Shown in pieces: positions 24,107 through 42,411 of a stretch of 47,327 bases of DNA. A model generated the notes under the pieces. The model did not search any database, was not told the DNA's origin, and saw nothing but the letters and a program-made list of their open reading frames with translations. The position numbers were made by a program, and so were the translations under genes. This DNA comes from an uncultured Candidatus Saccharibacteria bacterium (GTDB lineage Bacteria; Patescibacteriota; Minisyncoccia; Phycocordibacterales; UBA9973). Location of the stretch: positions 222,665-269,991 of the forward strand of contig CAYOLW010000001.1 of NCBI GenBank assembly GCA_964404925.1. Reading direction: 5' to 3'. Position 1 is the stretch's first letter. Each line of letters starts with the position of its first letter.

Positions 24107-24568
24107 ATGAAATATTTCGATTGGTTTTTAGTCCTTGTTTTTATAGGACTTTTAATTTTTCTAGCCTTAGGTCGGCGGGGAAACATAGCAGCCAATATTG
24201 GTAGTACTAAATACCTGGCTTTAGGTGATACTAAAATAAGTGTTGAACTTGCTATAAACAATGAAGCAAAAGCAAAAGGCCTCTCGGGAAGAGAGACCTT
24301 GAGAGAGGAAACCGGTATGCTTTTTATTTTTGATTATCCTTCTATTCATCCATTTTGGATGAAAGACATGAATTTCCCAATTGATATGATTTGGATCGAT
24401 GAGAACGGGATAATCGTCTACATTGAACCGAGTGCCAAACCAGAATCATTCCCAGGACTTTTTGGCAGTAATATTGAATCTAAATACGTGCTAGAAGTCG
24501 TTGCTGGATTCTCAGAAAAACATCAATTGAAAATTGGGGACAGAGTGACCTTCTTAGACTCTAACTAG
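24107..24568 (+). CDS. DUF192-family protein
   Basis: It has an N-terminal TM and GMLFIFD...FWMKDMNFPIDMIWID, typical of DUF192. TACAAT lies 6 nt upstream of the ATG. Confidence 0.7.
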   Translation: MKYFDWFLVLVFIGLLIFLALGRRGNIAANIGSTKYLALGDTKISVELAINNEAKAKGLSGRETLREETGMLFIFDYPSIHPFWMKDMNFPIDMIWIDENGIIVYIEPSAKPESFPGLFGSNIESKYVLEVVAGFSEKHQLKIGDRVTFLDSN

Positions 24569-25282
24569 TCTGCGAGCTAGAACCAATATCGCAAGCACAA
24601 GGATCAAAAGTAGTAACCAGCCAAAGAAAGTATTTGGCAAGAAGCTACCAGTGCCGAGCACAGAGGCTGCTGCCAATGTGCTTTTTTGTGTTTGAGTAGA
24701 AGTCACTATTCCTGTTTTTACAGGCACTGTGTTTACTGGTTGGTAAGCCACAGTATTATTTATTGGTTGGTAAGCTACAGCTCCAGTTACAGGCTGGTAT
24801 GTTGTAACAGGCTTATATGTTGTTACAGGCTGGTAGGTGGTTACAGCTTGGTAGGTTGTTATTGGCTGGTATGAAACCTGATTTGTGTTTACATAACTTG
24901 TAGTATTAACTGTATTATAGTTTGTGTATACAGTGTCTGTACCACTAGTAAATGAAAGTATCTGTGCTCGGTATGTGTTGTAGCCGTTGTTTGTGACAAC
25001 TCGGAAGTAATACACAGTGTTTGGCATCACATCATTTATAACTTGGGAAAAAGATCTTGAACTATTGTATGAACCAATAGATTCATGCTTAGTTTCCATA
25101 TAGTTACTCAAGTTTGAATCAGTTCCGTATTCAAACCATGCTGTAGCCGGTGCTCCACCTGGATTTACTGTTGCGTTTAATACTGCTGTTGTTGGGCTAG
25201 TTTGTGCGAATGCATTTACTCCAAAGAATAATGCCACTGCAACCACTGACCCGGTTATTATTTTTTTCATGATTGTTTTCAT
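24554..25282 (-). CDS. Secreted Fn3-like surface protein with a YQPVTT hexapeptide stalk and an LPNT-type C-terminal anchor
   Basis: From N- to C-terminus it has a signal peptide, a WFEYGTDSNL...YYFRVV Fn3-like domain, 18-nt tandem repeats (about 24733-24873), then FLPNTFFGW plus a hydrophobic helix plus RRLVRV. Confidence 0.75.
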   Translation of the reverse strand: MKTIMKKIITGSVVAVALFFGVNAFAQTSPTTAVLNATVNPGGAPATAWFEYGTDSNLSNYMETKHESIGSYNSSRSFSQVINDVMPNTVYYFRVVTNNGYNTYRAQILSFTSGTDTVYTNYNTVNTTSYVNTNQVSYQPITTYQAVTTYQPVTTYKPVTTYQPVTGAVAYQPINNTVAYQPVNTVPVKTGIVTSTQTQKSTLAAASVLGTGSFLPNTFFGWLLLLILVLAILVLARRLVRV

Positions 25283-25306
25283 TTTGCTTTTAATTAATTT
25301 AATAAC

Positions 25307-28300
25307 TTAGTGTGCTCCGTGGTCTCCGTGGGCATCATGTCCATGGCCGTGTCTTGGTGCATACATTGTTCTGATAAGTAATGCGACCGCTAGTATTATC
25401 AATATGATGATAATCCAGCCGATTAAAGTGTTTGGTAGGAAACCACTACCGAATATTGCTGCACCTGTAAGTCCGATACCGGCTACTGCACCAGCAATAG
25501 TGTTTCGAGAGTAAGCGAATACTTCTTCTTGGCTTCCATTTGATACTACTGTATATGCAAGGTTACCTGTGATAGCAATAACTGTACCAGTTTCTTTACT
25601 GTTTACTAATACGCGTACTGTAACTGCACCTTCTTCACCTGGGTATAGGCTAGGGATGTTAGCTACTAATGTTTTTGTTTCTGCGTTGTAGTCACCTAAT
25701 GTTGCACCAACATATTCGAATTCGCCAGGCAACATGACTTGTAGAACTATGTCTCGGAGGTTCTCAGCGGATACGTTCTTGTAGAAGAATGTGTATTCTA
25801 CTTCACTGCCGGCTGATACTGCTTCGTTATTGTGATCAACGGTTAGGTATACAAGAGAAGCTTTAGATGTACCAACACCTTCTACTTGGCCAACGTTAGT
25901 AACTGAAACTACATTTCTGTCTACTTGACTACCTTGAGTAACAGCTGTTGTTCGTGGATTATTGTTCACGATTACAGTATTACCCCTTGTAGTGAAATTT
26001 CTTATTTCACCTCGTGCTGTTCCGTACTGGTTGGTAACAACTGCTCGGAAGTAGTAGGTGGTGTTTGGTTGTAGTGTGAACAAGCTTGCATAGAAAGGAT
26101 TGGAAACTGCACTACCGATGAATGCATTGTTGGTAATGTTACCAAGTGCTGTAGTTGTACCCCATTCAAAGTATCCATTGGTTGCAACATTGCCACCAGA
26201 AAGTAGTCCAAGTCCGTTTAGACGAGCGCTGTTTTGGTCTACGTTAGTTGCAAGTGTTGTAACAGCTGTTGGTGCACAATTGATACCGAATCCGCAAGTG
26301 TTTGGATTTATTAAGTTACCAGTGGTTGTAAAGCTTGAGATGTTACCGTAGATGTTTCCAGAATTTCCATTGGCTACTGCTCGGAAGTAGTAGGTGGTGT
26401 TAGGCTGTAGACCTGAAACAAATTCAGAGAAGTTTCCAGAGTAACTTTGGTATTGATGATTGGTGGAATTGTAGAGTGCGCCGGAAGAAGTGCCCCATTC
26501 GAACCATCGCTGTGTGCTATTACCATTTGTGTTTACATATCCATTTAGGGTTGCACTGTTTTGGGTTACATTGGTTGCAAAGTAAGTAGTAACACTTGGG
26601 TTGTTTTGCTGTACGTTTTCTACATAGATCGTTACAGAATCAGAATTTGAATTTGAACCATTGTAGCAGGTGATAGTGTAAGTAGTGTTGTTGTATAGGT
26701 TGCCAGTAGATACATTGCCAGTTAGGTTCTTGGTTCCAGCCCATCCGTTAGCCCCACCGTTTGCAGTACATGAGGTTGCGTTAGTTGAACTCCAGAATAC
26801 ATATGTAGAATCACCGTAGTTAAGTGTAGTGTCGTTTGCATTGATGTCTACTGTTGGTGTTGGAGTATTGCCAACTTTTACAGTTACAGAAGCTGCAGCT
26901 GATGTACCGTATTGGTTAGAACAGGTGATTGTGTAAGTCGTGTCTGCATATAGGTGTCCGGTCCAGAATGAATCACTGTAGTGATATTTGCTACCAGCCC
27001 AGCCGTTAGTGCCACCTGTGCCTAAGCAAGAAGTTGCATTAACTGGGTACCAGTATATTTCTGTGCCTTCACCATAAGGAATACTTGCAGGTATTGCCTT
27101 GATAGTAACAGTCGGAGGGTCGCCTGCTGGAGGCTGTGAGCCCACAGCTACAGATATGGTTTTAGAATCAAATCCACCTGGGCCTGTGCAGTAGAGGTTA
27201 AAGTAAGTTGGGTTAGAAGTTAAGTTGTTGACCACTTGTGAGCCACCGGTAGCTGATACAGATCCAGTCCATGATGTAGATGGAGTTGAGTTAGCAGTAC
27301 ATAATGTTGCACCGGTTACAGACCAAGTGACAGTTGTCGATCCGTTATAAGAAACAGATACAGGGTTAGCTGAAAGGTTGGTGATAAGCACATTTGCGGG
27401 CGGAGCCTGGGTTACAGTTACAGTGGCTGTGTCTGAAGCAGATCCACCAGGACCAGTACAGGTAAGTGTATATGTAGTATTTGATGTAGGGGATACAACT
27501 TGTGATCCACCGTTTGCATTTTTATTACCACTCCATCCATTAGAAGCCACACATGATGTTGCGTTTGATACAGACCAAGTAAGAGTTGAACTCTGACCTG
27601 TTTGGATAGAACTTGGGTTAGCTGTTAGGTTAACTGTTGGGGCGTTTTGCTGAGGCCAGGTACAGTTTGGTGGTACACCGATCATGCCCGGTGGGCAAGT
27701 CTGAGGTGGAGGGGTAGTGACAGAAACAGTAGTAGAGTCAGAAACTCCGTTACAGGTTAAAGTATAGGTTGTTGTTTGAGTAGGGAATACAGTTACTGGT
27801 CCACCGTTCCAAGCCTTAGATCCAGACCACTGTGATGTGGCAGGGAAAGCAGTTGCAGTACACATACCATTCCATCCGGTTACAGTCCAGGAGAGAGTTG
27901 AACCTTGTCCAGATTGAATGCTTTGAGGGTTAGCCCAAAGAGCCACAGTTGTTTGCTGTTGTTGCTGTTCTGTAGTAAAAGAAGTCCAAGGAAAACTTGA
28001 GGTTGTTCCATCAGAATTCTGAGCAACAGCCCGGAAAGTGTGGTTACTTCCAGGTGCTAGATTATTCAATGTGTATGAGTATGGAACATCACCATTACCA
28101 CCACCGAGGCTAGTTGTGCCATAGTGGGTACTTCCATTATCAACTTCAAACCAAGCAGTTGTTGCCAACCCATTTGGATTGAAGGTACCATTCAGTGTAG
28201 CTGATGTTTGAGTAATATTTGTTGCAACAGCACTACCTAATTCAAAAGAAGGAGTGAAGGCAAAAGCATAATTAGCTCCGAGCAAGAATGCCCCGAGAAC

Positions 28301-28339
28301 CAATACAAACGAAAACACTTTTTTATACATATTTTTCAT
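25307..28339 (-). CDS. Giant surface protein: Fn3-like and ~7 Ig-like Cys-containing repeats, LPNT-type anchor, His-rich tail
   Basis: It has a signal peptide MKNMYKKVFSFVLVLGAFLLGANYAFA and repeats of the form ANPxSIxxGxSSTLTWSVxNATSC...TYTLTC. The C-terminus is FLPNTLIGW plus a TM helix plus RHGHGHDAHGDHGAH. Confidence 0.8.
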   Translation of the reverse strand: MKNMYKKVFSFVLVLGAFLLGANYAFAFTPSFELGSAVATNITQTSATLNGTFNPNGLATTAWFEVDNGSTHYGTTSLGGGNGDVPYSYTLNNLAPGSNHTFRAVAQNSDGTTSSFPWTSFTTEQQQQQTTVALWANPQSIQSGQGSTLSWTVTGWNGMCTATAFPATSQWSGSKAWNGGPVTVFPTQTTTYTLTCNGVSDSTTVSVTTPPPQTCPPGMIGVPPNCTWPQQNAPTVNLTANPSSIQTGQSSTLTWSVSNATSCVASNGWSGNKNANGGSQVVSPTSNTTYTLTCTGPGGSASDTATVTVTQAPPANVLITNLSANPVSVSYNGSTTVTWSVTGATLCTANSTPSTSWTGSVSATGGSQVVNNLTSNPTYFNLYCTGPGGFDSKTISVAVGSQPPAGDPPTVTIKAIPASIPYGEGTEIYWYPVNATSCLGTGGTNGWAGSKYHYSDSFWTGHLYADTTYTITCSNQYGTSAAASVTVKVGNTPTPTVDINANDTTLNYGDSTYVFWSSTNATSCTANGGANGWAGTKNLTGNVSTGNLYNNTTYTITCYNGSNSNSDSVTIYVENVQQNNPSVTTYFATNVTQNSATLNGYVNTNGNSTQRWFEWGTSSGALYNSTNHQYQSYSGNFSEFVSGLQPNTTYYFRAVANGNSGNIYGNISSFTTTGNLINPNTCGFGINCAPTAVTTLATNVDQNSARLNGLGLLSGGNVATNGYFEWGTTTALGNITNNAFIGSAVSNPFYASLFTLQPNTTYYFRAVVTNQYGTARGEIRNFTTRGNTVIVNNNPRTTAVTQGSQVDRNVVSVTNVGQVEGVGTSKASLVYLTVDHNNEAVSAGSEVEYTFFYKNVSAENLRDIVLQVMLPGEFEYVGATLGDYNAETKTLVANIPSLYPGEEGAVTVRVLVNSKETGTVIAITGNLAYTVVSNGSQEEVFAYSRNTIAGAVAGIGLTGAAIFGSGFLPNTLIGWIIIILIILAVALLIRTMYAPRHGHGHDAHGDHGAH

Positions 28340-28461
28340 AAATTTCTCTCCCGTTTTAAAGCATTCTTCGTCCGTCCGTAGCCTTGGCGTAGGAGGATTC
28401 GCTTGTTTTGGGAATAATAATCCGCTTTTGGCGGTTCTACTAATAATTGATTAATAACGGG

Positions 28462-28490
28462 ATACTAGCACATTTTCCAAATAAAGTCAA
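28462..28490 (-). promoter_or_regulatory. Promoter of the surface-protein operon
   Basis: On the minus strand: TTGACT (28490-28485), a 17-nt spacer, then TGcTAGTAT with the -10 at 28467-28462. GGGAGAG lies before the ATG at 28339. Confidence 0.6.
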
Positions 28491-28560
28491 GTACAGTTTG
28501 TAATCTTCTATTATTCTAGCCGGCTACTTGGATAGGTAATTACAGAGCATATTATTAGTA

Positions 28561-28589
28561 TTGACTTTTTGTTAAATGTATGTTAATGT
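28561..28589 (+). promoter_or_regulatory. Sigma-70-type promoter facing the T9SS-type gene
   Basis: TTGACT (28561-28566), a 17-nt spacer, then TAATGT (28584-28589). Confidence 0.55.
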
Positions 28590-28628
28590 GCATAGGTTCT
28601 ATGTTCTTTCTCAATTAAATAGCGTGAG

Positions 28629-28662
28629 TCCTGCATAGCTTTACGCGAAGCAGGATGTTTTT
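28629..28662 (+). terminator. Terminator-like hairpin in the leader (attenuator or short sRNA end)
   Basis: TCCTGC-N15-GCAGGA followed by TGTTTTT. It lies about 35 nt downstream of the predicted transcription start and about 120 nt upstream of the ATG at 28781. Confidence 0.4.
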
Positions 28663-28780
28663 AAAACGATAGATTTTTCATGATTTGATCTGTAGAGGGT
28701 GGGAAGTTTTTGGACATTTATATTAAGTGTCTTAAGATTTTCCACTCTCAACGTAAATTTTTTAAAACAAATCAATAGTC

Positions 28781-30670
28781 ATGAAAAAATTCAAAGCCCT
28801 CGCGGCAATTCTCGTCTCAATTCTTTTTATTACCGGCAATATTTTTGCCCAAAATGCTTGTGGTATTCAGGCAACACCCACTACTCCCGTAGGTTGCTTT
28901 GGTAGTGCGACAGGGTCAATTGACCTTCAGTTGGCTAACCCCGGAGTATCTGGCGGTTACACCTATCAATGGTCTAACGGCGCCACCACCCAGGATCTGA
29001 CAAATATCCCGGCTGGTACCTATACCGTCCTGATTACATATTTGTGGAACGGGCAAGGATGTCAAAGCCAAAGTAATCCGATCACAGTTAATCAACCACA
29101 ATTCGGCCTCAGCCTGAACACATCTGCATTTCCGGTGTCGTGCTTCGGATTATCAGATGGTTGGACCGAACTCGTAATCTTGGGCGGAACCGCACCTTAT
29201 GAAACTCACTGGAGCAATGGTGCTAACACTGAGGACTTGGACAATGTTCCGGCCGGCACTTATTTTGTCACCGTAACAGATGCCAACGGATGCGTAAATA
29301 CCGGTGCTGTCACAGTTGGACAACCTGCCCCTTTGCAGGTTTCAACAAGTGTTCAGCAAGGTAGTTGCGGTCAGTTCGGCTCAATTGACGTGAGCGTATC
29401 TGGCGGAACAGCCGGCTATACCTATGACTGGAGCAATGACGGACCGGAAAGCCCGGACAACGACCCGCAGGATCTAAGTGGACTGACAACCGGAACTTAT
29501 ACTGTAACCATCACTGATGCACATGGATGCCCAGTAACCACTTCTGCCACAATTACTGGCGGCGGACAGGGTATCAACCCGAATGTAACCAGCACCTGTG
29601 ACGGTGCAATTATCAGCGGTTTGACGGCCGGTACTTATACGGTAACGATTACCAATGCTGACGGCTGTACTTCTGTGAAAACATTTACGGTTGCTTGCAA
29701 TCTTGCCGTTGGTGCTTCGGTATCCAATGTAAGTTGCAACGGCGGCAATAATGGTGCGATCAACCTGAACGTTACCGGTGGCACAATACCTTATACTTTC
29801 CACTGGAATACGGGCTCGTCAAACCAAAATTTGGCAAATCTACCAGCCGGAACTTATACGGTGACTGTCACTGATGCAACGAACAACACCAAAACTGTGA
29901 GCGCTACAGTGAGCCAACCTTCGGCAATTTTTACATCTGCAAGTGTCAATGACGTATCAAACAATGGTGGCTCAAACGGATCAATTAATTTGTCGGTAAG
30001 TGGTGGTACTCCGGGTTATACATTCCACTGGAACAACAATGCTTTGACGGAAGATGTTTTCAATCTTGCAGCCGGTATCTATACCGTAACTGTCACAGAT
30101 GTGAACTGGTGTACCGTAACGCTTTCGGCAACTGTAAACCAGCCGCCGCCATGTGTTGCACCCAATGCATCTTTCGCTGCAAGTAGCCCAACCGGGTTTA
30201 TTGCATACTGCGCAAATCTGAGCACTGGTACGAACCTCAGTTATCACTGGTGGTTTGGCGATGGTCAGGAATCAACAGAGGAGAATCCGACACATACATA
30301 CCAGAATACCGGTATGTACCTGATCACCTTGAAGGCCACGAATGAGTGTGGTCAGGATAGTGAAACTAAGAACATTCTTATCTCTGGCGGTGGCCCAACT
30401 CCGGTTGTGGAACCTGGCAATGATGAAAATGGACTGACTGTTTTCCCAAATCCGGCAGTTGATTTTGTGTCTGCTAAGTTTGAGAATTTTGAAAAAGCCG
30501 ACAATGTGTATTTGTTCAATTCTGTGGGTCAACAACTCGCAAGTTTTGGTTCTATTCGAACCAACGAACAAATCAACGTAGAAGGATTTGAAGCCGGCAC
30601 ATACTACCTTTGTTTCAAATTTGGCGACAAAATTACAACCCGGAAGCTCGTTAAATCGAGCAGTTTCTGA
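28781..30670 (+). CDS. Secreted protein with ~6 SprB-type repeats, a PKD domain and a T9SS type-A C-terminal sorting domain
   Basis: The signal peptide ends ...GNIFAQ. Repeated units have the form C.G...GSIDL...GG..GYTY.WSNGATT.DL.N.PAGTYTVT.TD. The PKD block is WWFGDGQESTEENPTHTYQNTGMYLITLKATNECG. The C-terminus is LTVFPNPAVDFVSAKF...LFNSVGQQL...GTYYLCFKFGDKITTRKLVK. Third codon positions are visibly richer in C/G than in the flanking genes. Confidence 0.85.
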   Translation: MKKFKALAAILVSILFITGNIFAQNACGIQATPTTPVGCFGSATGSIDLQLANPGVSGGYTYQWSNGATTQDLTNIPAGTYTVLITYLWNGQGCQSQSNPITVNQPQFGLSLNTSAFPVSCFGLSDGWTELVILGGTAPYETHWSNGANTEDLDNVPAGTYFVTVTDANGCVNTGAVTVGQPAPLQVSTSVQQGSCGQFGSIDVSVSGGTAGYTYDWSNDGPESPDNDPQDLSGLTTGTYTVTITDAHGCPVTTSATITGGGQGINPNVTSTCDGAIISGLTAGTYTVTITNADGCTSVKTFTVACNLAVGASVSNVSCNGGNNGAINLNVTGGTIPYTFHWNTGSSNQNLANLPAGTYTVTVTDATNNTKTVSATVSQPSAIFTSASVNDVSNNGGSNGSINLSVSGGTPGYTFHWNNNALTEDVFNLAAGIYTVTVTDVNWCTVTLSATVNQPPPCVAPNASFAASSPTGFIAYCANLSTGTNLSYHWWFGDGQESTEENPTHTYQNTGMYLITLKATNECGQDSETKNILISGGGPTPVVEPGNDENGLTVFPNPAVDFVSAKFENFEKADNVYLFNSVGQQLASFGSIRTNEQINVEGFEAGTYYLCFKFGDKITTRKLVKSSSF

Positions 30671-30773: not shown

Positions 30774-30829
30774 AATTTTTATAAAAAAAACAGAAAACCC
30801 CCAACCGGTAAGGCAGAGGGTTTTCATAT

Positions 30830-31177
30830 GGGTTGAGATGTCTATAAGCCGAATTCTGTTTTCGCCTCATCGGCGAATGGCAGTTATTTATCTAGGATTA
30901 TTGTTACCAATAACCTCAAGCGATTCTTTCGCCTTATCGGCAAACACGATCTTGCATTCACGTAAGGATTTAGCCGTTTCACTTTCCGCATTACTACGGA
31001 ACTCGCCCCTTGATTTCTCTCAGGGCGATTTTTCTCTTTCAAGAAAAATCGTCTCTGTTCGCACCTCGCACCTCGCGGTGGACGGGGGTTACCCGCTACG
31101 CTTTCCACCTCATCGGCGGATAAATGTTCGGACTTTCCTCTACGCCGTGGAGGCGTAGCAACTACCCAACATCTCGC
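30830..31177 (-). ncRNA. rnpB: RNase P RNA (bacterial type)
   Basis: The minus strand has GAGGAAAGUCCGAAC (CR-I, reverse complement of 31129-31140), ACAGAAUUCGGCUUAU (CR-V, reverse complement of 30844-30859), and P1 pairing GAGAUGU (31175-31169) with ACAUCUC (30841-30835). A promoter lies directly upstream. Confidence 0.9.
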
Positions 31178-31409: not shown

Positions 31410-33302
31410 ATGCAAAAAAGCATAGAATCTTGGAAGAACCTCGTTACTTGGGCATACAATTTTTTCTCGGTGCCGTTACTTTTTAAAACTCTTTTTTCTC
31501 CTTGGGAAATGGACAGGGGAGACGGATCAGAATTTTCTTGGTTTGAAAAAATAATATTTTATATTTTCTCTCGAGTCCTGGGCTTTGTGGCGCGAGTGTT
31601 TTTGATTGTGCTTGGGCTGACACTTACCATAATTATCATTGCATTGTATCCAGTGTTCATGCTCATACCTATTAATATTGATAAAAATAAATTGGTAAAA
31701 ATAGGTAGTATTGGATCTAGCCTCTCGTATGGTAATACTTATGATTTGAATCGTATTGGTAAAGATAAAACCTTAAGTAGTGAAGTAGAAATTTTTGGTA
31801 AAGAGCGTGCATTGCGCATGGTGCTGCGCGCACTGGCCAAAGATGCGAATCACAATGTTCTACTCGTAGGTGATGTAGGCGTAGGTAAAGATACATTGAT
31901 TGATTACTTGGGTAAGCTTGGCGAATCCGGTCTTGCAGAGGCGGGCATTGTACACCACCGCGTTGTAGAATTGCCTCTTGAGAACATCAGCGCAGAAGAC
32001 ATGATAAACGCGCTCGATGAGGCACGCGATGCCGGGAATGTAATTTTGGTTGTCAAAAGCCTTGATCGGTATGAATCAATTTATGAAAAACTCCTGCCGT
32101 ATTTAGACAGCAAGAATTTAGCCATCATTGCTACAACTGAATTAGGTGGGTACGATCGTGTGCTCAAAGTACATCCGGAATTCTTGGCGAAATTCGAGAA
32201 GGTGGATATATTGCCTCCGTCTCATGAGGAGACTATGCAGATAGTTTTGAACTATGCTTTATATCACAACATCAATATCAGCAAAGAAGTTGTTGATGAA
32301 TTGGTTACTCTAGCTGGGCGGTACATCATGAATGAATCTGAACCACAAAAATCGATTTTGATTTTTGATGAATTACGTGCGCTCGCTAAAAAAGAAATCA
32401 CCATAGCAGATGTGAGGCAGATTATTTCTGACAAGACGAATGTACCCCTTGGTGCACTGGAAGCTAATGAAAAAGAAGTTTTACAAAATTTAGAGTCCAC
32501 CATGCTCGGCAAAATTATTGGACAAGAACAAGCTGTGAAAGAAGTTGCTCAAGCATTAAAGAGATTGCGGGCCGGCATTGCCAACCCGACCAAACCCGCA
32601 GGATCATTCTTGTTCTTGGGTCCGACCGGAGTAGGTAAAACATACACGGCGAAAGTTTTAGCTGAGAGTTATTTCGGCCGGCGTGATGCCATGCTGCGTT
32701 TTGATATGAGTGAATTTGCTTTGCAGGGTTCGTTGCCGATTTTTGCTGACAGGTTAGCCTCTGCTATTGAGGAGTCTCCGATGTCTTTGGTGTTCTTTGA
32801 CGAGCTTGAGAAATCGCACCGCGACATTCATCAGCTGTTACTCCAAGTACTAGATGAAGGAATGTTTACTCGCGAGAATGGCCGCGTGGCTAATTTCCGT
32901 AATGCAATAATTATCGCCACATCAAATGCAGGCAGTCGGGAAATAATTGCTGATTCAACAGTGACTCGAGATTATTTATTACAAGTTCTAATTCGTGATC
33001 AGGTGTTCAGTCCTGAATTCTTGAATCGCTTTTCAAGTATTGTGCTGTTCTTGCCGATGAGCCAGAAGGATGTACGAAAGGTGAGCAGACTGCTTCTGAT
33101 TGAATTATCAGAACGACTATTGAACGAGAAGAACATTAACCTGGTGGTAACCGATGAATTAGTGGAGAAAGTAGCGGAGGTTGGATTCGACCCTAACTTT
33201 GGCGCACGGCCCATTCACCGAGCGATAGAGGAGATAGTAGAGAACAAAATAGCTGAATTAATCATAGAAGGCAAGACAGAAGGGGAAATCAAGATCTTGT
33301 GA
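31410..33302 (+). CDS. Clp/Hsp100-family AAA+ ATPase with an N-terminal membrane segment and a degenerate first Walker A
   Basis: The second module has GPTGVGKT, FFDELEKSH and GARPIHRAIEE. The first module has GDVGVGKDT in place of the canonical GxxGxGKT. The N-terminal ~90 aa contain two hydrophobic helices. Confidence 0.8.
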   Translation: MQKSIESWKNLVTWAYNFFSVPLLFKTLFSPWEMDRGDGSEFSWFEKIIFYIFSRVLGFVARVFLIVLGLTLTIIIIALYPVFMLIPINIDKNKLVKIGSIGSSLSYGNTYDLNRIGKDKTLSSEVEIFGKERALRMVLRALAKDANHNVLLVGDVGVGKDTLIDYLGKLGESGLAEAGIVHHRVVELPLENISAEDMINALDEARDAGNVILVVKSLDRYESIYEKLLPYLDSKNLAIIATTELGGYDRVLKVHPEFLAKFEKVDILPPSHEETMQIVLNYALYHNINISKEVVDELVTLAGRYIMNESEPQKSILIFDELRALAKKEITIADVRQIISDKTNVPLGALEANEKEVLQNLESTMLGKIIGQEQAVKEVAQALKRLRAGIANPTKPAGSFLFLGPTGVGKTYTAKVLAESYFGRRDAMLRFDMSEFALQGSLPIFADRLASAIEESPMSLVFFDELEKSHRDIHQLLLQVLDEGMFTRENGRVANFRNAIIIATSNAGSREIIADSTVTRDYLLQVLIRDQVFSPEFLNRFSSIVLFLPMSQKDVRKVSRLLLIELSERLLNEKNINLVVTDELVEKVAEVGFDPNFGARPIHRAIEEIVENKIAELIIEGKTEGEIKIL

Positions 33303-33984: not shown

Positions 33985-36900
33985 ATGAAATTCAAATTGT
34001 TTTTTCTGACCCTTGTTGCGTTCATGGTTACTTTCAGTAACCCTCTCAACGCACAAGACTGCGTTGGTATCCACATTACCCAGCAATGGAATTGTGCTGA
34101 TGCCACCGCAACCGCCACGGCTCACCCCGAAGGTGGTACAGCGCCATACACCTACAATTGGTCAAATGGCGATACTGGCCCGACTGCGACAGATCTGGCC
34201 CCTGGCCAGCATTACGTTACGGTTACCGACGCCGTTGGCTGCCTCCATGTTGAGGCTTGCATTGTTGTTGTGCCCGAGTGCTGTATTTGGTTTAGTGTGA
34301 CGAGTACACCTGATGACTGTAAACCGGCTAACAACGGTCAAATCGCAATCTGGGAAATTGGTGGCGGAGTTCCTCCGTACACTATATCAATCTCAAACGG
34401 TATGACGAAAGTTAGTAACGGCAATGCACCCATCTTCATTAACAATCTGCCATCCGGTACGTATTACATCACTGTTGCAGATGCTACTTGTTCAAATGAA
34501 CAAATGATTGAAGTTGAACAGGAAAAAAGCCCTACCGTGAAGTTATTTTCAAATGGGTTAACCTGTACTGCAGCAACCACGGATATTACGACGCAGGTAA
34601 CCAATGGCCCGGTTACATTCCTTTGGAACACTGGTGCCACAACAAACAAACTTACGAATGTAGGCCCTGGTACTTATGGTGTTATAGTAACGAACCCTAA
34701 TGGCTGTAGCGATAGTGACACAATTACGATCAGCGCTCCGGCACAAGTTGTATTGAGTGCGACTGCTACTCCAACAGCATGTGGTGAGAATAACGGTATG
34801 ATTAACGTTTCAACGACTGCGAGTACTGTTATGGTAGTAGCACCCAATGGCGCTATATACAACCTTAACGGTTCCGCAACGATTACAAATTTACAACCTG
34901 GCGTGTATGAAATCACTGCCACGAACAGCAACGGCTGTTCAATGGTTGAAACTGCAATCGTGGGTGATAGTCAGCCGGCGAAAGATTCAGTTTCTTGCGT
35001 AACGATTTGTCAACCTAGTTTTGTAAATGGTGTATGGGTTTCCTCAAGCACTACGCTTACGGACACCTTGATCAATGCAAATGGTTGCGATTTTTTATTC
35101 AAGTTGATGGTGAATTTACAAACGATCGACACAACACATCAAACTGCTTTCACTTGCTTCGGTGGTGTTATTACAGTTAACGGTGTCGAATACAAAAAGG
35201 ACACTACTGTTTATGCTCAAACAAATGGAAATTGCCCCGGACTCACAATTTGGGATCTGCAGTTTTCCGATGAACCTGATACATTGCTTATGCCTGCGGT
35301 GAAAGTATGCGGTGGTGACAGTGCTTCCGTTTATACATTTGAAAACACAATCGGCATAAACACCGACTGTGCTGAACTTGTTGTAATACGGACATTTGAA
35401 CACCAGCCTTACACCCTACAGTATTCCTTAAGCAGTGCTGACACAATATGTGGATTCACAAACAGAACCGATTCATTGTTCCAAAAAATTAGTGTTGATA
35501 ATCAGAATTGCGTTATTAACCAGCCCTATGGCTTGTTGGTAACCAATACTCCGAAAGTTGACACTATTCCTGGTCCAACCCACTACATATGCGGCACTCC
35601 CGCAAGTACGATTTGGGTTGAAACAAAGGATATAATGAATCTTGAAAACTGTAGCCGTAAAATTGAAGGATACTGGCAAATCACGGGTCCAAAGCCTCCG
35701 ATGGTAATCCTATATCAGGACACTTGCTATAACGGACCGTTTCCTATTGCACCGGTGCAAATTTTGCACTCGGATTGTAATCCGGACACCTTGATTATCC
35801 CAATTCCTTATAATTCGGTAATTACTCCAATCAGTAAAAATCTTTGCTATGGTGATACTCTTCACTTTGGCAATATAAACATTACTGAAGCAGGTAGTTA
35901 TGAAGTATTTGCAGGACAGACGACTCATGGTTGCGACAGTGTAAATTTGGTAAATGTTACCATGGTTTTCGGTTCTAAATTTCAAACCACCCAGGACACC
36001 TGCGGCCTTACAGTTGCCGGTGAAAAATTCTGGACAGTTACCACAAGCCCAAACGGCTGTGTTGATTCTACTGAGGTAACCCTGAAATGGGTGCCTGGTT
36101 TTGAACTTGATTCTGTTTTTACGACGTGCCGCAAACAAGATGCTGTTTGCCATTCTGACACTATTCAAAAAAATGGTTGCTGGGGGATTGTGCACTACGG
36201 TGCAGATTACCTCCCAAACACTTTTTCTGAAGTTGCCTACACCTGTGATTCGTTGCAGGCTGGTTTTACTGTGAAGGCTTGGCTTCCCGCTAACCCGAAC
36301 GATCCGACCGATTGCGATTCGATAGTTTGGCTGCACAAAATTTTGCGTACAATTCAACCGACTCAATTGAATCCAGTGGTACTTTGCCCTGGTGAAAATG
36401 TTTTGTTTGAAGGGCAAAATTATCCTGCACCACCTGCTGGTGAGTCTGTGACTTTAACAAAAACTTACATGACACTTGAAGGATGTGATTCAGTTGTTAC
36501 TCAGGTAGTAACCGGATTGCCTCAATCGAATCGTGAAGTTTTGTTGAATGTATGTCCTGACGGCGAAGTTTACTTTGCTGAAGCAGATACTATTCTGACA
36601 GTTGGAACGTATGTTTTTGAATTTCCGGTTTTCGGTGGTTGTAATGAGATAGTTACTGTATCTGTAACTGAGTACACTGCAAATCTTTTTGCTTTTGTTC
36701 CCCAGGACACGACTATCGTTATGCCTATCGGGGTTACTCCTGCTCAGGTTGACGGTATTGTACAGGCACTTGTTACAACAAGTTGGTTTGGTTCTTTGGA
36801 AGACACAACGTGGACAATTGTTCGGCACGAACTTTTTGGACCGACGATTGTAAATGACTCGATTAATCAATACTTGGAAGTATGGGGTTTTCAAGGCCCA

Positions 36901-37287
36901 TGCGGACAATTAGATACGAGTCGTATCATTAACGTAGTTTTCCCAAAACCTGCTAAACCGCCAGTGATTATTTGCGATGTGATTGTACAACTTGTTGGTA
37001 ATGATAAGATTTCGATTAATATTTTGAATAATATTGTGGAAGGAGACACTTTGTCTCAATTTACTTACAGTATTTATTCAAATGCAGGGGTTGCTACTAT
37101 GGGTACGCTCAAGTATAACCCCCTTACCAATGATGGGCTTAATTTGATTCCATTACCACAGGCTTTGCTTGGCTTAAACATGTACATTGTGCACGTTGAA
37201 GCCATTGGTGATCCAAGTGGCGACGTGTACATTCTGGTACCCCCAGGTTCAAGTCCTAATGCGACTTCAATGGGGATTTGTCGTTAA
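33985..37287 (+). CDS. 1100-aa Cys-rich secreted protein with 4 N-terminal SprB-type repeats and a beta-sandwich-like C-terminal domain
   Basis: The signal peptide ends ...SNPLNAQ. The repeats include GGTAPYTYNWSNGDTGPTATDLAPGQHYVTVTDAVGC and similar units. A ~700-aa region rich in Cys, Thr and Asn follows. The C-terminal ~90 aa loosely resemble a T9SS sorting domain. Codon usage matches 28781..30670 and not the backbone. Confidence 0.75.
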   Translation: MKFKLFFLTLVAFMVTFSNPLNAQDCVGIHITQQWNCADATATATAHPEGGTAPYTYNWSNGDTGPTATDLAPGQHYVTVTDAVGCLHVEACIVVVPECCIWFSVTSTPDDCKPANNGQIAIWEIGGGVPPYTISISNGMTKVSNGNAPIFINNLPSGTYYITVADATCSNEQMIEVEQEKSPTVKLFSNGLTCTAATTDITTQVTNGPVTFLWNTGATTNKLTNVGPGTYGVIVTNPNGCSDSDTITISAPAQVVLSATATPTACGENNGMINVSTTASTVMVVAPNGAIYNLNGSATITNLQPGVYEITATNSNGCSMVETAIVGDSQPAKDSVSCVTICQPSFVNGVWVSSSTTLTDTLINANGCDFLFKLMVNLQTIDTTHQTAFTCFGGVITVNGVEYKKDTTVYAQTNGNCPGLTIWDLQFSDEPDTLLMPAVKVCGGDSASVYTFENTIGINTDCAELVVIRTFEHQPYTLQYSLSSADTICGFTNRTDSLFQKISVDNQNCVINQPYGLLVTNTPKVDTIPGPTHYICGTPASTIWVETKDIMNLENCSRKIEGYWQITGPKPPMVILYQDTCYNGPFPIAPVQILHSDCNPDTLIIPIPYNSVITPISKNLCYGDTLHFGNINITEAGSYEVFAGQTTHGCDSVNLVNVTMVFGSKFQTTQDTCGLTVAGEKFWTVTTSPNGCVDSTEVTLKWVPGFELDSVFTTCRKQDAVCHSDTIQKNGCWGIVHYGADYLPNTFSEVAYTCDSLQAGFTVKAWLPANPNDPTDCDSIVWLHKILRTIQPTQLNPVVLCPGENVLFEGQNYPAPPAGESVTLTKTYMTLEGCDSVVTQVVTGLPQSNREVLLNVCPDGEVYFAEADTILTVGTYVFEFPVFGGCNEIVTVSVTEYTANLFAFVPQDTTIVMPIGVTPAQVDGIVQALVTTSWFGSLEDTTWTIVRHELFGPTIVNDSINQYLEVWGFQGPCGQLDTSRIINVVFPKPAKPPVIICDVIVQLVGNDKISINILNNIVEGDTLSQFTYSIYSNAGVATMGTLKYNPLTNDGLNLIPLPQALLGLNMYIVHVEAIGDPSGDVYILVPPGSSPNATSMGICR

Positions 37288-37371: not shown

Positions 37372-38760
37372 TTGAAACAGATATTTTTTTCCGCCATTCT
37401 CTTAATGCTCGCACATGTTGCGGGTTTGGCACAGAACTTTAAAAAACCCGCAAATCTTCCGGACTGCAATATATCCGCAATTCCTTTTAGGAATGAAGCA
37501 ACGGGTGTTAATCAACCTCATGCTGCACGGCTTTATGCCCTGCTTATGAACACTGGAGGTGCGGCTGTTGCCACAACAGATTCTGCTGCCCTTCATAGCG
37601 TAGAAGAGGCTTTGAATAGTGGAAACGAAATGCAAGTTACCGGCTACGTTGCTGGTGTGTCTATATCTAACGGACAACCTTGTATTAGTTTTAGTGAAAA
37701 ACAAAGCACTATCACTGCTGTCCCTTGGTTTCGCTGGGACGGCACCTGGATGGTTTATATAAGAACTGGATGTCAAAACCCGGTACTTGTATTTGCACCG
37801 TCTGAAGGTAAAGGTGTGGACGAAACTCCAATACTGGGCAGGGGAGATATTAACATAACTCTTACCAGTACTACGATTAACAACATTTCTCTTAGTATAA
37901 CTAATCCAACACAAGCAGCAGTATGTTGCCCTAAGTTTGGACAGACTGAATTTTCTGCCTACGTAACCAGCCGTTCCCTGAAGGGTAGCATCTTGCTTCC
38001 TCAAGACTGGGAACCTGCTGCTGGTATAAGTATGATAAACAGAAAATTGGTATTAGGCCCAAATGATGAGGTTTACGGAAAACCCGTTGGATGGAAAACT
38101 ATTGGTGAACTTTACATGCGTGTAGCGGAAAAATCTGGAGAAGCACCATGTGATACATGTGGTATATGGAGAAAGAAAGGAAAAAATCGTAACTTTGGTG
38201 TTGCGATTGCGACAGGACCGGTGCTTTTGGGATGGAAGCCATTTGAATCAATTCCTTGGTTGAGTGTTCGTGCAAGTCTTATGGCTCGCTACGAAACACC
38301 AATTCGTAAAAATGAAAATGCTGGTTGGAAAGGCTTTTCTATAGCAAGTAAGATTGATTTATTGATTGGTCGCGCTTATAAACCACATCTTGAATTGGGT
38401 ATCGGTGAAAAGTGGCATCCATTTCCTGTAGAACCTAAACCTGGCCCTGGTGCATTTAATACAGAGTTCACGGCTACTTTCGTTGTTCCTTTTGGACAAA
38501 GTGAAGAGCCTCCTCGTTTTGTAAAAAATGCAAAGAACAGATCTTCAAAGGTTGCTAAAAATGCACCTAAAAAAATCTGGAAAGGTACGAAAAAAGCAGG
38601 AAAAACAACTTGGAAAGCAACTAAAAAGGGAGCAAAAGCAACCTGGAAAGGTGCTCGCAAGTTGAGCAAATGGACTGCGAAAAAGTTTAAAAAGACTTTT
38701 AGCAAGAAAAATAAGAAGGAAGAAACTTCACCCGTTGAAAAACAGGGTGAGAACAAGTAA
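37372..38760 (+). CDS. Secreted protein of unknown function with a polycationic Trp/Lys-periodic C-terminal tail
   Basis: It has a TTG start and the signal peptide MKQIFFSAILLMLAHVAGLAQ. The last ~80 aa read KIWKGTKKAGKTTWKATKKGAKATWKGARKLSKWTAKKFKKTFSKKNKK. Confidence 0.6.
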   Translation: MKQIFFSAILLMLAHVAGLAQNFKKPANLPDCNISAIPFRNEATGVNQPHAARLYALLMNTGGAAVATTDSAALHSVEEALNSGNEMQVTGYVAGVSISNGQPCISFSEKQSTITAVPWFRWDGTWMVYIRTGCQNPVLVFAPSEGKGVDETPILGRGDINITLTSTTINNISLSITNPTQAAVCCPKFGQTEFSAYVTSRSLKGSILLPQDWEPAAGISMINRKLVLGPNDEVYGKPVGWKTIGELYMRVAEKSGEAPCDTCGIWRKKGKNRNFGVAIATGPVLLGWKPFESIPWLSVRASLMARYETPIRKNENAGWKGFSIASKIDLLIGRAYKPHLELGIGEKWHPFPVEPKPGPGAFNTEFTATFVVPFGQSEEPPRFVKNAKNRSSKVAKNAPKKIWKGTKKAGKTTWKATKKGAKATWKGARKLSKWTAKKFKKTFSKKNKKEETSPVEKQGENK

Positions 38761-41284: not shown

Positions 41285-41355
41285 GGGCCCATAGTTAAGT
41301 GGTATAACGCGTCCATGGCATGGATGAGGCCGGAGTTCAATTCTCCGTGGGTCCA
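41285..41355 (+). tRNA. tRNA-Ala (GGC), no encoded CCA
   Basis: The sequence is GGGCCCAUAGUUAAGUGGUAUAACGCGUCCAUGGCAUGGAUGAGGCCGGAGUUCAAUUCUCCGUGGGUCCA. The anticodon loop is AUGGCAU and G3:U70 is present. Confidence 0.88.
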
Positions 41356-41361
41356 CATTTA

Positions 41362-42411
41362 ATGAATAAATACACAAACCGTAAACATAAATTCTATAAT
41401 ACCTCTGTCAAAGCTTGGCAGGGTATGTATGAGGCAATCCAGTCAGCTCGTATCTCTGTTTATATGGAAATGTATATTTTCCTTGATGATATCAAGGAAT
41501 TCGATTTCGTTTCTTTGCTGATCCAAAAAGCAAAAAGCGGTGTACAGGTAAAAATAATTCTAGACGCCTATGGTTCTATGGAATTAAACAGGAAATCTAT
41601 TGCCCAATTAAAAGAGGCTGGTATTGAGGTGTTTTTCATAAGTTATTTCTGGCATCGACTGCACAGGAAGATATTAATTATAGATGAGCAAACGGCATTT
41701 TTTGGAGGAGTGAATATTCATCATTCTGCAAAAGAGTGGCTGGATTTGATGATGGAAATTCGTGGCAAAATAGTAGAGAGGTTTGTTCGTATTTTTGCAC
41801 GAGATTACGTTTTGGCTGGGGGGAGTCGATCCTGTTTTGGTGGCACATAATAAAAAGGTTTTTTTACATAAAACTCGGACTTTTATCGTAGACCATTTGC
41901 CTATGATCAAAAAGTTCCGAATGAAAGATTTATATAAAGATCATATTGCCCTAGCAAAAAAAGAGATAACCCTAGTGACTCCGTATTTTGTGCCTAAAAG
42001 GTGGTTCGTTGCATTACTACACCAGGCTGTGTTGCGTGGGGTGGAGGTCAGCGTTATTATTCCCGAGAATACAGAACATGTACTCTTAACTAAGACTAAT
42101 TATTTTTATATGAATCGTGCTCAAAAGCTAGGAATAAAGTTTTACTTAGGTAACAGTATGAACCATGCAAAGATTATGCTAATAGATAGCGATGAAGCTT
42201 TAATTGGTTCACAAAATTTAGACTTTTGTCTTTTGAATTAAACTCAGAGATAGGTGTTTTCTTTAAGCAGAGGGGTGTTGTGACTAATTTATATAATATA
42301 ACCTCAAAATGGAAAAGCCAGTCAAAACCATTGATTGAATCCAAATACAGACTCAATTTTTTTGAAAGGATATTTGCCCATATTCTTAACGTCTTTGTGC
42401 AGATTTTGTAA
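41362..42411 (+). pseudogene. Cardiolipin synthase / phospholipase D family gene disrupted by two frameshifts
   Basis: HKD motif 1 (HRKILIIDEQTAFFGGVNI) is in frame 1 and HKD motif 2 (HAKIMLIDSDEALIGSQNLD) is in frame 2. The tail SFELNSEIGVFF is back in frame 1. The shifts are near the G6 run at 41818-41823 and at about 42224-42232. The start is set at ATG 41362 because the track start (41320) lies inside tRNA-Ala. Confidence 0.8.

Follow-up and report, generated by a model that had tools for sequence, protein, structure and literature searches.

The gene considered here occupies positions 28781-30670 (+) of a 47,327-nucleotide stretch of contig CAYOLW010000001.1 (GenBank assembly GCA_964404925.1), which is referred to below, at its full length, as the window. 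It encodes a secreted protein of 629 amino acids, the target of this analysis, that combines SprB repeats, a PKD domain and a type-A C-terminal domain (CTD) of the kind found in type IX secretion system (T9SS) cargo proteins. As far as the sequences can tell, the target belongs to a family of T9SS-type CTD proteins that is conserved and syntenic, in a lineage believed to be devoid of this system. It is probably a resident gene of a subclade of the Nomurabacteria, within the candidate phyla radiation (CPR), which goes back to an old import from the Bacteroidota and whose CTD has been repurposed without a T9SS. The T9SS is restricted to the Fibrobacteres-Chlorobi-Bacteroidetes (FCB) group (PMC11205867), and its sorting domains have been treated as a signature of both that group and an outer-membrane machine (PMC11205867, PMC11611037). 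In the literature searched, T9SS-type CTD proteins were not reported from CPR, Patescibacteria or Parcubacteria, and only unrelated mentions were found. Because the models fit the cargo family but the lineage does not, the target is termed T9SS-cargo-like, and not T9SS cargo.

The domain composition of the target is well defined. An earlier note on this DNA, made from the letters alone, had proposed a signal peptide ending in ...FAQ, about six SprB-type repeats, a PKD domain and a Por/T9SS type-A pattern at the C-terminus, and the three models that it named for these domains (TIGR04183, PF13573 and PF18911) all score above their cut-offs in the intact open reading frame (ORF). The signal peptide comprises residues 1-23 (28781-28849, +; MKKFKALAAILVSILFITGNIFA|Q), shows n-, h-, and c-regions, and is cut after NIFA (...NIFA|QNACG) in a heuristic cleavage-site scan, in agreement with a Sec signal. 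A lipoprotein signal (...AQNAC|G) was considered and rejected, since Q and N at positions -3 and -2 are, in our judgement, unlike a lipobox. The SprB-repeat region (28850-30136, +) contains five full units of about 75-90 amino acids, which PF13573 matches as five stretches with 131.2 bits (Pfam cut-off, 28) and which are recognizable in the translation by the motif C.G..(D/N)G.I...V.GGT.PY.F/Y.W; the sixth unit is a partial one, seen at residues ~272-297. The PKD domain (residues 455-531; 30143-30373, +) is matched in Pfam by PF18911 (PKD_4) with 57.2 bits and by PF00801 with 47 bits. By sequence it resembles the PKD domains of the ColH collagenase in the PDB (E 6e-18) and those of surface proteins such as the archaeal S-layer protein 1l0q, but, unlike in ColH-type proteins, PKD is just one module of the target, which has no catalytic domain. 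The type-A CTD lies at residues 554-625 of 629 (30440-30655, +; VFPNP ... GTYYL ... RKLVK). It scores 88.1 bits with TIGR04183 of NCBIfam (cut-off, 23) and, over residues 554-624, 77.6 bits with Por_Secre_tail PF18962 (cut-off, 27), and it resembles the solved T9SS CTD 8glj_D by sequence (E 1e-4). In an AlphaFold2 (AF2) model of the whole target built from its single sequence (mean predicted local distance difference test score, pLDDT, 38), the CTD is the sole confident part, with seven strands at residues 552-625 and a pLDDT of 73-79; these predicted strands would fit the 3+4 sandwich reported for CTDs. The C-terminus contains neither an LPNT motif nor a membrane segment.

The backbone that carries the gene is CPR, more precisely Nomurabacteria/Paceibacteria, as judged from the matches of a clpB-like protein and from the marker genes of the window (rpsP, trmD, rpoB, rpoC, dnaG, rpoD, tsf, rpsB, proS, mreB, mreC, tgt, mltG, and others), which also holds four tRNAs and a class-A RNase P RNA. 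The relatives of the clpB-like protein (31410-33302), which are 53-64% identical to it, come from metagenome-assembled genomes (MAGs) that bear the names Candidatus Nomurabacteria, Paceibacterota or Patescibacteria group, and the NCBI lineage of the backbone runs from the Patescibacteria group to the Parcubacteria group. The backbone and its syntenic relatives are Candidatus Nomurabacteria/Paceibacterota and do not belong to the FCB group. The context had been described as CPR-like and of Gram-positive type, which the backbone genes and the neighbouring surface proteins with LPNT anchors bear out. The visible sequence amounted to 47 kb of the 286.6-kb contig and to at most ~22 kb per relative, and no T9SS or outer-membrane biogenesis family was recognized among the 36 window ORFs of at least 100 amino acids that were used for the family scans. 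CPR genomes are generally reported to be without outer-membrane machinery.

The residence of the gene is indicated by its place in related genomes, for which 10 kb on either side of the clpB-like gene were taken from 76 genomes and compared with the window. The subclade has a common gene order, namely an LPNT surface protein (-), a secreted protein (+) in what is called the slot below, the RNase P RNA gene rnpB, and the clpB-like gene. rnpB is found at that place in seven related contigs (L001, L002, L003, L012, L018, L021, and L045), and the slot proteins of several of these are built from the same modules: PKD and Por_Secre_tail (44.7 bits) in L003, SprB and MopE repeats with PKD and Por_Secre_tail (39.2 bits) in L045, PKD with a shortened CTD (20.5 bits) in L012, and PKD or SprB-like sequence with a shortened tail, below the Pfam threshold, in L018 and L021. 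L134, a 164-kb ENA contig whose mltG and LPNT proteins are 63% and 55% identical to those of the window, encodes two such proteins beside the LPNT protein: one of 280 amino acids with PKD and CTD, and one of 940 amino acids with SprB and PKD, which shares 34% identity with the target over 610 residues and has a shortened tail at its end. Por_Secre_tail passes the Pfam cut-off in proteins of L003, L045 and L012 that stand in a CPR context, and there is also a record of it for the 280-aa protein of L134.

The closest relative of the target is P0046, the best full-length homologue in a search of 5.8 billion clusters (53% identity over 99% of the length), which is encoded at positions 474-2327 of the 2.6-kb ENA contig L077. 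In L077, 330 upstream nucleotides match window positions 28273-28627 at 72% (blastn, 72% over 366 nucleotides), and its intergenic region can be aligned over the full length with window positions 28340-28780, which run from the LPNT start codon to that of the target, so that P0046 is taken as the positional orthologue in a related organism. When the PKD+CTD part of the target, which excludes the repeats, was compared with 119 other top homologues and the CPR proteins, the best matches were P0046 (128 bits), the CPR protein of L003 (65.5 bits), P0119 (50.8 bits), and the CPR protein of L045 (47.8 bits); in the PKD+CTD alignment the PKD domain is conserved among the CPR slot proteins. The divergence of the slot protein appears to track that of the backbone: its identity correlates with that of the clpB-like protein over 15 pairs (Pearson 0.83, Spearman 0.52), with 49% and 86%, respectively, for L018-L021, 43% and 71% for L012-L021, and 28% and 53% for window-L021. 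An exact-sequence search for the target on other contigs has nothing on record, and when the CPR PKD+CTD alignment served as a search profile, multi-PKD proteins dominated the matches, with no CPR names in the top 120, so that CPR members could not be counted in this way. The horizontal acquisition from a Bacteroidota donor that the earlier note had deduced, if understood as a recent and private event, does not agree with the orthologue in L077 and the slot homologues of L003, L012, L018, L021, L045, and L134; the sorting domain and the best matches are common among close relatives of the backbone organism, and the locus is not empty in them, as it would be around a recent islet. At the borders of the target stand a surface-protein gene and rnpB, both kept in the relatives, and no integrase, insertion sequence (IS) ORF or tRNA was found there, direct repeats not having been searched for.

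Composition had been the other argument for a foreign gene, and the codon bias claimed for the target is real. Its codon fractions exceed those of the backbone for CCG (0.45 versus 0.16), GGC (0.32 versus 0.13), CTG (0.22 versus 0.07), GCC (0.31 versus 0.12), and AGC (0.23 versus 0.05), and its GC content at synonymous third positions (GC3s) is the highest of 36 window genes (0.428; backbone, 0.286 +/- 0.066), with 0.400 in the adjacent, native clpB-like gene. The orthologue in L077 reaches a GC3s of 0.565 between flanks of 33-38% GC. At 187 four-fold degenerate sites under identical residues, the target and this orthologue are identical in a fraction of 0.299, compared with 0.244 expected by composition. 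A value so near the compositional expectation means that the synonymous sites are saturated and that any donor signature should be gone. On this comparison a relic of the donor is an unlikely source of the codon bias, and the GC3 excess would have been kept up or would have arisen on two occasions; its cause might be selection or, in repeat genes, GC-biased conversion. Elevated GC3 of island genes (the island being the run of genes from the LPNT-anchored proteins to mltG described below) recurs in L001, L003, L018, and L021, and not in L012, L045, or L134. Loci with such an excess over AT-rich backbones are window 28781-30670, L077:474-2327, L001:12723-14681, and L003:3350-5356. The tetranucleotide profile does not single out the target either: the strongest outlier is the LPNT protein at 25-28 kb (r 0.49), the second SprB protein of the island, SprB2, gives 0.59, and the target region lies at 0.73. 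Since the LPNT protein, which had been considered native, deviates more than the target, the deviation appears to follow the odd amino-acid make-up of surface proteins and need not mark the target as foreign.

The CTD itself varies within the clade. A mini-CTD of 42-48 amino acids, instead of the 75-aa domain, forms the C-termini of L012:1067-2719, L018:7683-9218, L021:981-2447, and L134:2798-5620. Its pattern (VFPNPT.GP...G.Y.I.V.D..GR.V...V.K) keeps the PNP, G.Y, and V.K motifs and misses the middle strands. Recognition by the T9SS needs the full 3+4 CTD sandwich, which is Ig-like and has seven strands (PMC11285876), and the loss of the middle strands therefore argues for a function other than canonical T9SS recognition. 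That the CTD has a function is argued by its retention over a long divergence and on different passengers: a full CTD sits on an unrelated passenger in L012 (12613-14211, 45.1 bits), and in the 280-aa protein of L134 the CTD is again joined to a different one. On the reading that we favour, the domain set of the target and its neighbours was most probably imported from the Bacteroidota before the subclade diverged, and the slot gene would since have been inherited in place, with the fast evolution usual in surface proteins. The protein would be exported by Sec and signal peptidase I, which already puts it outside, because the cell is assumed to have no outer membrane, and there the array of SprB and PKD beta-sandwiches would act as an adhesin. 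Instead of being a T9SS export signal, the CTD may be a terminal module that retains or orients the protein on the cell's own envelope or on a partner cell, and the elevated GC3 would be a standing property of the gene lineage and not the trace of a donor. We infer, in short, a Sec-exported adhesin with a repurposed CTD that works without a T9SS.

Regarding the ultimate origin, every homologue of the target that has a name within the best 120 of 7293 belongs to the Bacteroidota or is obviously mis-binned. When metagenomes were scanned with the target, 53 loci came up, none with CPR backbone neighbours and, apart from short fragments, at no more than 48% identity; without such neighbours they are taken as Bacteroidota-type SprB proteins that say nothing about the clade. 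P0119, which carries the closest CTD outside the clade, lies in a diderm, Bacteroidota-like context with OmpA. The A|Q junction of the signal peptide is found, by heuristic scan, in the target, in SprB2, in the family of the downstream gene orf462, and in the slot proteins of all relatives, and the majority of the remaining predicted secreted proteins on these contigs do not have it. The N-termini concerned are window 28781-28855, 33985-34060, and 37372-37440, and those of island proteins of L001, L003, L012, L018, L021, L045, and L134. This 'Q-rule' for signal peptides has been described as specific to the Bacteroidetes (PMC5837995). Given the Bacteroidota homologues, with their SprB repeats and CTD, and the A|Q junctions, the simplest origin would be an old, undated import from the Bacteroidota into the ancestor of the subclade, which is plausible. 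In this restricted sense the proposed horizontal origin stands, as an ultimate and old one.

Two further genes of the island bear on the function of the target. SprB2 (33985-37287, +) encodes a secreted protein of 1100 amino acids with an A|Q signal peptide, SprB repeats (PF13573, 43.8 bits) and a Cys-rich body, and has orthologues in L045, L131, L012, and L134. No type-A CTD was detected in it, and no match to PF13585 or TIGR04131; a degenerate type-A CTD at its end was considered and dropped, as hhalign against the CPR CTDs gave a probability of 2.6%. The C-terminal domain that SprB2 has in common with L045 and L131 reads ...Y(I/V).VPP...MG(I/V)C... The next gene, orf462 (37372-38760, +), encodes an A|Q signal peptide, a Cys-rich N-terminal domain, a predicted 8-stranded barrel (AF2, Foldseek) and a Lys-rich helical tail. 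Its family is rare: a word-index homologue search returned orf462 alone, and an exhaustive representative search found 11 representatives among 1.84 billion. Relatives are L012:8068-9162, L045:7129-8568, L131:3792-5369, L134:10001-11533, and L135:1279-2964. Members of the family always follow a SprB2-type gene, the pair being kept in L012, L045, L131, and L134, and every member with visible context lies in the same island; the signal-junction Gln is the sole invariant column of the family alignment. The AF2 model from the 11-sequence alignment (mean pLDDT 68.7; strands 70-90) has eight long antiparallel strands, and its best Foldseek matches in the PDB are OmpA, NspA (TM-score 0.59), OmpX, Ail, PagL, and OmpW, all of them 8-stranded outer-membrane barrels. 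Strands 4-8 are significantly amphipathic, a property that does not distinguish membrane barrels from soluble ones, and no PorP/SprF, PorV or OmpA model of NCBIfam matched the family at E values up to 10. orf462 is thus a predicted OmpA/OmpX-like barrel, which is unexpected in a CPR bacterium.

Several points weigh against residence with a repurposed CTD. The SprB region of the target is 40-48% identical to selected Bacteroidota and about 28-38% to the other CPR slot proteins, a comparison that is biased because the Bacteroidota matches are the best of thousands; this similarity could come from a later, second import. The GC3 excess that persists is not accounted for by this reading, in which the role of the CTD is a proposed one. 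With 47 kb of the contig and at most ~22 kb per relative visible, the absence of T9SS genes from these genomes is an assumption that follows the general picture of CPR. Finally, the barrel predicted for orf462 hints at an outer membrane, the cell's own or that of a host, that matters for the island.

The first of these points leads to the alternative that survives best, although it is unlikely: the slot would be a hot spot, in which the ancestor of the window and L077 lineages replaced the slot gene, or its SprB array, by a newer allele derived from Bacteroidota in a lineage-specific transfer. Canonical SprB repeats (131 bits) are indeed confined, among slot proteins, to the target and L077, with none in L003 and L012 and one sub-threshold repeat in L045; the same two genes show the strongest GC3 excess, and the 40-48% identity of Bacteroidota proteins over the repeat region points the same way. 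However, GC3 is uniform over the SprB, PKD, and CTD parts, and the saturation of synonymous sites between the target and L077 should have let any donor signal decay. In its PKD+CTD part the target has CPR proteins as its closest matches, its 5' end and the intergenic region continue without a break into the alignment with the L077 orthologue, and several relatives have SprB repeats in further genes of the island, too.

The hint of an outer membrane can be followed in two directions. It is doubtful, though conceivable, that the island as a whole, with the CTD/SprB secreted proteins and the orf462 barrel, is a host-attachment kit of a Nomurabacteria episymbiont for diderm hosts, probably Bacteroidota; if true, it would offer, for the first time in this CPR class, a molecular access to the identity of the host and to the mechanism of adhesion, the alternative being an outer layer that belongs to this CPR subclade itself. 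The hint at the host, or the mimicry of host adhesins, that the earlier note had seen in the gene is neither borne out nor refuted by the sequences. A more specific form, host mimicry, would have the CTD dock on PorV/PorU of a Bacteroidota host and orf462 insert into or bind the host outer membrane, thereby tethering the cell. For this speak the type-A hallmarks of the CTD, all of them kept over long conservation in a lineage expected to be without a T9SS, the Bacteroidetes-type A|Q junctions across the whole set, and the OmpA/OmpX-like barrel predicted for orf462. In Bacteroidota, however, T9SS components meet the CTD during its passage from the periplasm, and we know of no evidence that they take up cargo offered from outside. 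Four relatives have the shortened CTD without middle strands, and CTDs are poorly interchangeable even between genera of Bacteroidota (PMC11285876), all of which leaves mimicry improbable.

The other direction, an outer layer or a secretion or attachment pathway of the subclade's own that has gone unrecognized and reads the CTD, would account for the several CTD proteins with different passengers per genome (L012, L134) and for the barrel predicted to be encoded in the island, which resembles outer-membrane proteins. The window has no recognized T9SS or outer-membrane biogenesis family, the adjacent sortase-type LPNT anchors point to a monoderm-type wall, and the general picture of CPR cells without outer-membrane machinery likewise argues against it, so that such cryptic sorting has very little to recommend it.

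Equally little credit can be given to a recent private acquisition from a Bacteroidota donor, for which the highest GC3s of the window, the distinct codon choice, the Bacteroidota names of the homologues and the lack of a leaderless promoter geometry had spoken. The best Bacteroidota identity is only about 40-48%, the syntenic orthologue, at saturated synonymous divergence, and the more distant syntenic homologues together occupy at least six independent CPR contigs, there is no integrase, IS or tRNA-flanked junction, and in tetranucleotides the native LPNT protein stands out more strongly than the target. A chimera of assembly or binning that placed a Bacteroidota fragment in a CPR contig, which the local GC rise (0.49 at 29-30 kb versus ~0.39) might suggest, is scarcely credible, as CPR backbone lies on both sides of the target in one 286.6-kb contig and the same junctions occur in the ENA contigs L077 and L134 and the GenBank MAG contigs L003, L012, and L045, which come from different projects and assemblers.

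The target can be compared with several known systems. Type-A CTD cargo with SprB repeats in Bacteroidota (Chryseobacterium, Flavobacterium, Saprospiraceae), annotated as 'SprB repeat-containing protein' or 'T9SS type A sorting domain-containing protein', has the same A|Q Sec signal, SprB repeats, PKD domain and TIGR04183 tail, with 35-48% identity to the target over the repeat region. Unlike this cargo, the target resides in a CPR genome, in a CPR-specific slot beside rnpB and with no T9SS or outer-membrane gene seen in the window, and its relatives carry a shortened CTD. In Flavobacterium johnsoniae, SprB and SprF, an outer-membrane barrel of the PorP family, form an arrangement that belongs to the type-B CTD system (PMC11205867). 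The island likewise has SprB-type repeats, and SprB2 is directly followed by the predicted barrel orf462, in an order reminiscent of sprB-sprF, but the CTD of the target is of type A and not B, SprB2 has no PF13585/TIGR04131 match, orf462 matches no PorP/SprF model and is predicted to have 8 strands like OmpA/OmpX, and no gliding machinery is visible. Sortase-anchored proteins of the LPXTG type in monoderms are also Sec-exported and repeat-rich, and proteins of this kind adjoin the target (24554-28339), presumably on the same surface; the target differs from them in the lack of LPNT and of a C-terminal membrane segment, its C-terminus being a predicted folded beta-sandwich.

A Nomurabacteria subclade thus keeps such proteins in a fixed slot over a divergence that saturates synonymous sites, and the CTD fold is evidently useful outside the T9SS. 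Given the conservation of the slot, a TIGR04183 match or an atypical GC3 in CPR bins should not be read as contamination or as fresh transfer. The SprB/PKD/CTD proteins, SprB2, and orf462 are testable candidates for the adhesion of uncultured, host-dependent cells to a partner, and possibly a clue to that partner.

The island has the order LPNT-anchored proteins, SprB/PKD/CTD slot protein, rnpB, clpB-like gene, SprB2, orf462, and glucosaminidase ... mltG. Its left border is the LPNT+TM-anchored (TM, transmembrane) surface protein at 25307-28339 (-), which has 1010 amino acids, fn3-like repeats in the translation and a Pfam DUF11 match, and whose orthologues in L018, L003, and L134 are 42-55% identical and occupy the same relative position. 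A second LPNT+TM-anchored surface protein of 242 amino acids (24554-25282, -), also recognized from its translation, has homologues in L001 and L002 beside rnpB. The LPNT and TM anchors that the earlier note had ascribed to the neighbouring surface proteins are present in both, since they end in FLPNT(F/L)..W, a hydrophobic stretch and basic residues, and these C-termini look like sortase-type anchors. Across the clade a variant of this cell-wall sorting signal is seen, F(L/W)P(N/R/T)(T/S), after which come ..W, a hydrophobic helix and a tail of basic residues; its loci are window 24554-25282 and 25307-28339 (-), L001:8512-9300, L002:8529-9284, L003:247-3069, L004:614-1579, and L018:4403-7483. 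On the other side of the target lies the class-A RNase P RNA (30829-31177, -; RF00010, 132.4 bits). Its orientation varies in the subclade, being (+) in L002, L012, L018, and L021 and (-) in the window, L001, L003, and L045, which suggests local inversions. The clpB-like AAA+ protein (31410-33302, +; AAA_2, ClpB_D2-small), which served as the marker for synteny and taxonomy, is short (630 aa), with a membrane segment at its start instead of the usual N-domain. It adjoins rnpB throughout the syntenic subclade and stands in a different context in other Nomurabacteria-like MAGs. Upstream of the clpB-like gene in L008 (3061-5845, -), a 565-aa lipoprotein and a 359-aa protein are encoded, and the ending of the latter, ...GFQLRLGIRTQDRR, resembles a beta-barrel ending.

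The divergent intergenic region between the LPNT gene and the target (28340-28780), known to be shared with L077 from the blastn match and the full alignment given above, has conserved blocks that include TTGACT (28561-28566), 17 nucleotides, and TAATGT (28584-28589). A promoter and terminator scan of 28.3-31.45 kb gave nothing above shuffled expectation. Within the long conserved leader 5' of the target, a hairpin CCTGC...GCAGG followed by a T-run (28620-28665, +) is present in the window and has no counterpart in L077; an attenuator would be one possibility, and the terminator of a small transcript another. Many window genes have a TATAAT-like box 6-12 nucleotides before the ATG (for example those at 31410, 39833, 22698, 13362(-), and 24107), and most genes are without a Shine-Dalgarno match, a combination to be expected if leaderless transcripts are widespread. 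Among the exceptions, which do have a leader, are the genes of the LPNT protein (GGGAGAG) and of the target. The statement that the target is without the leaderless promoter geometry is correct, therefore, and applies as well to the native LPNT protein at 25307-28339. Further downstream, the overlapping ORFs 41320-41850 and 41783-42241 (+) each match one half of cardiolipin synthase, the N-terminal and the C-terminal one, respectively, a split that could be due to a frameshift, a pseudogene or a sequencing error, and the listed start of the first of them overlaps the tRNA-Ala gene at 41285-41356.

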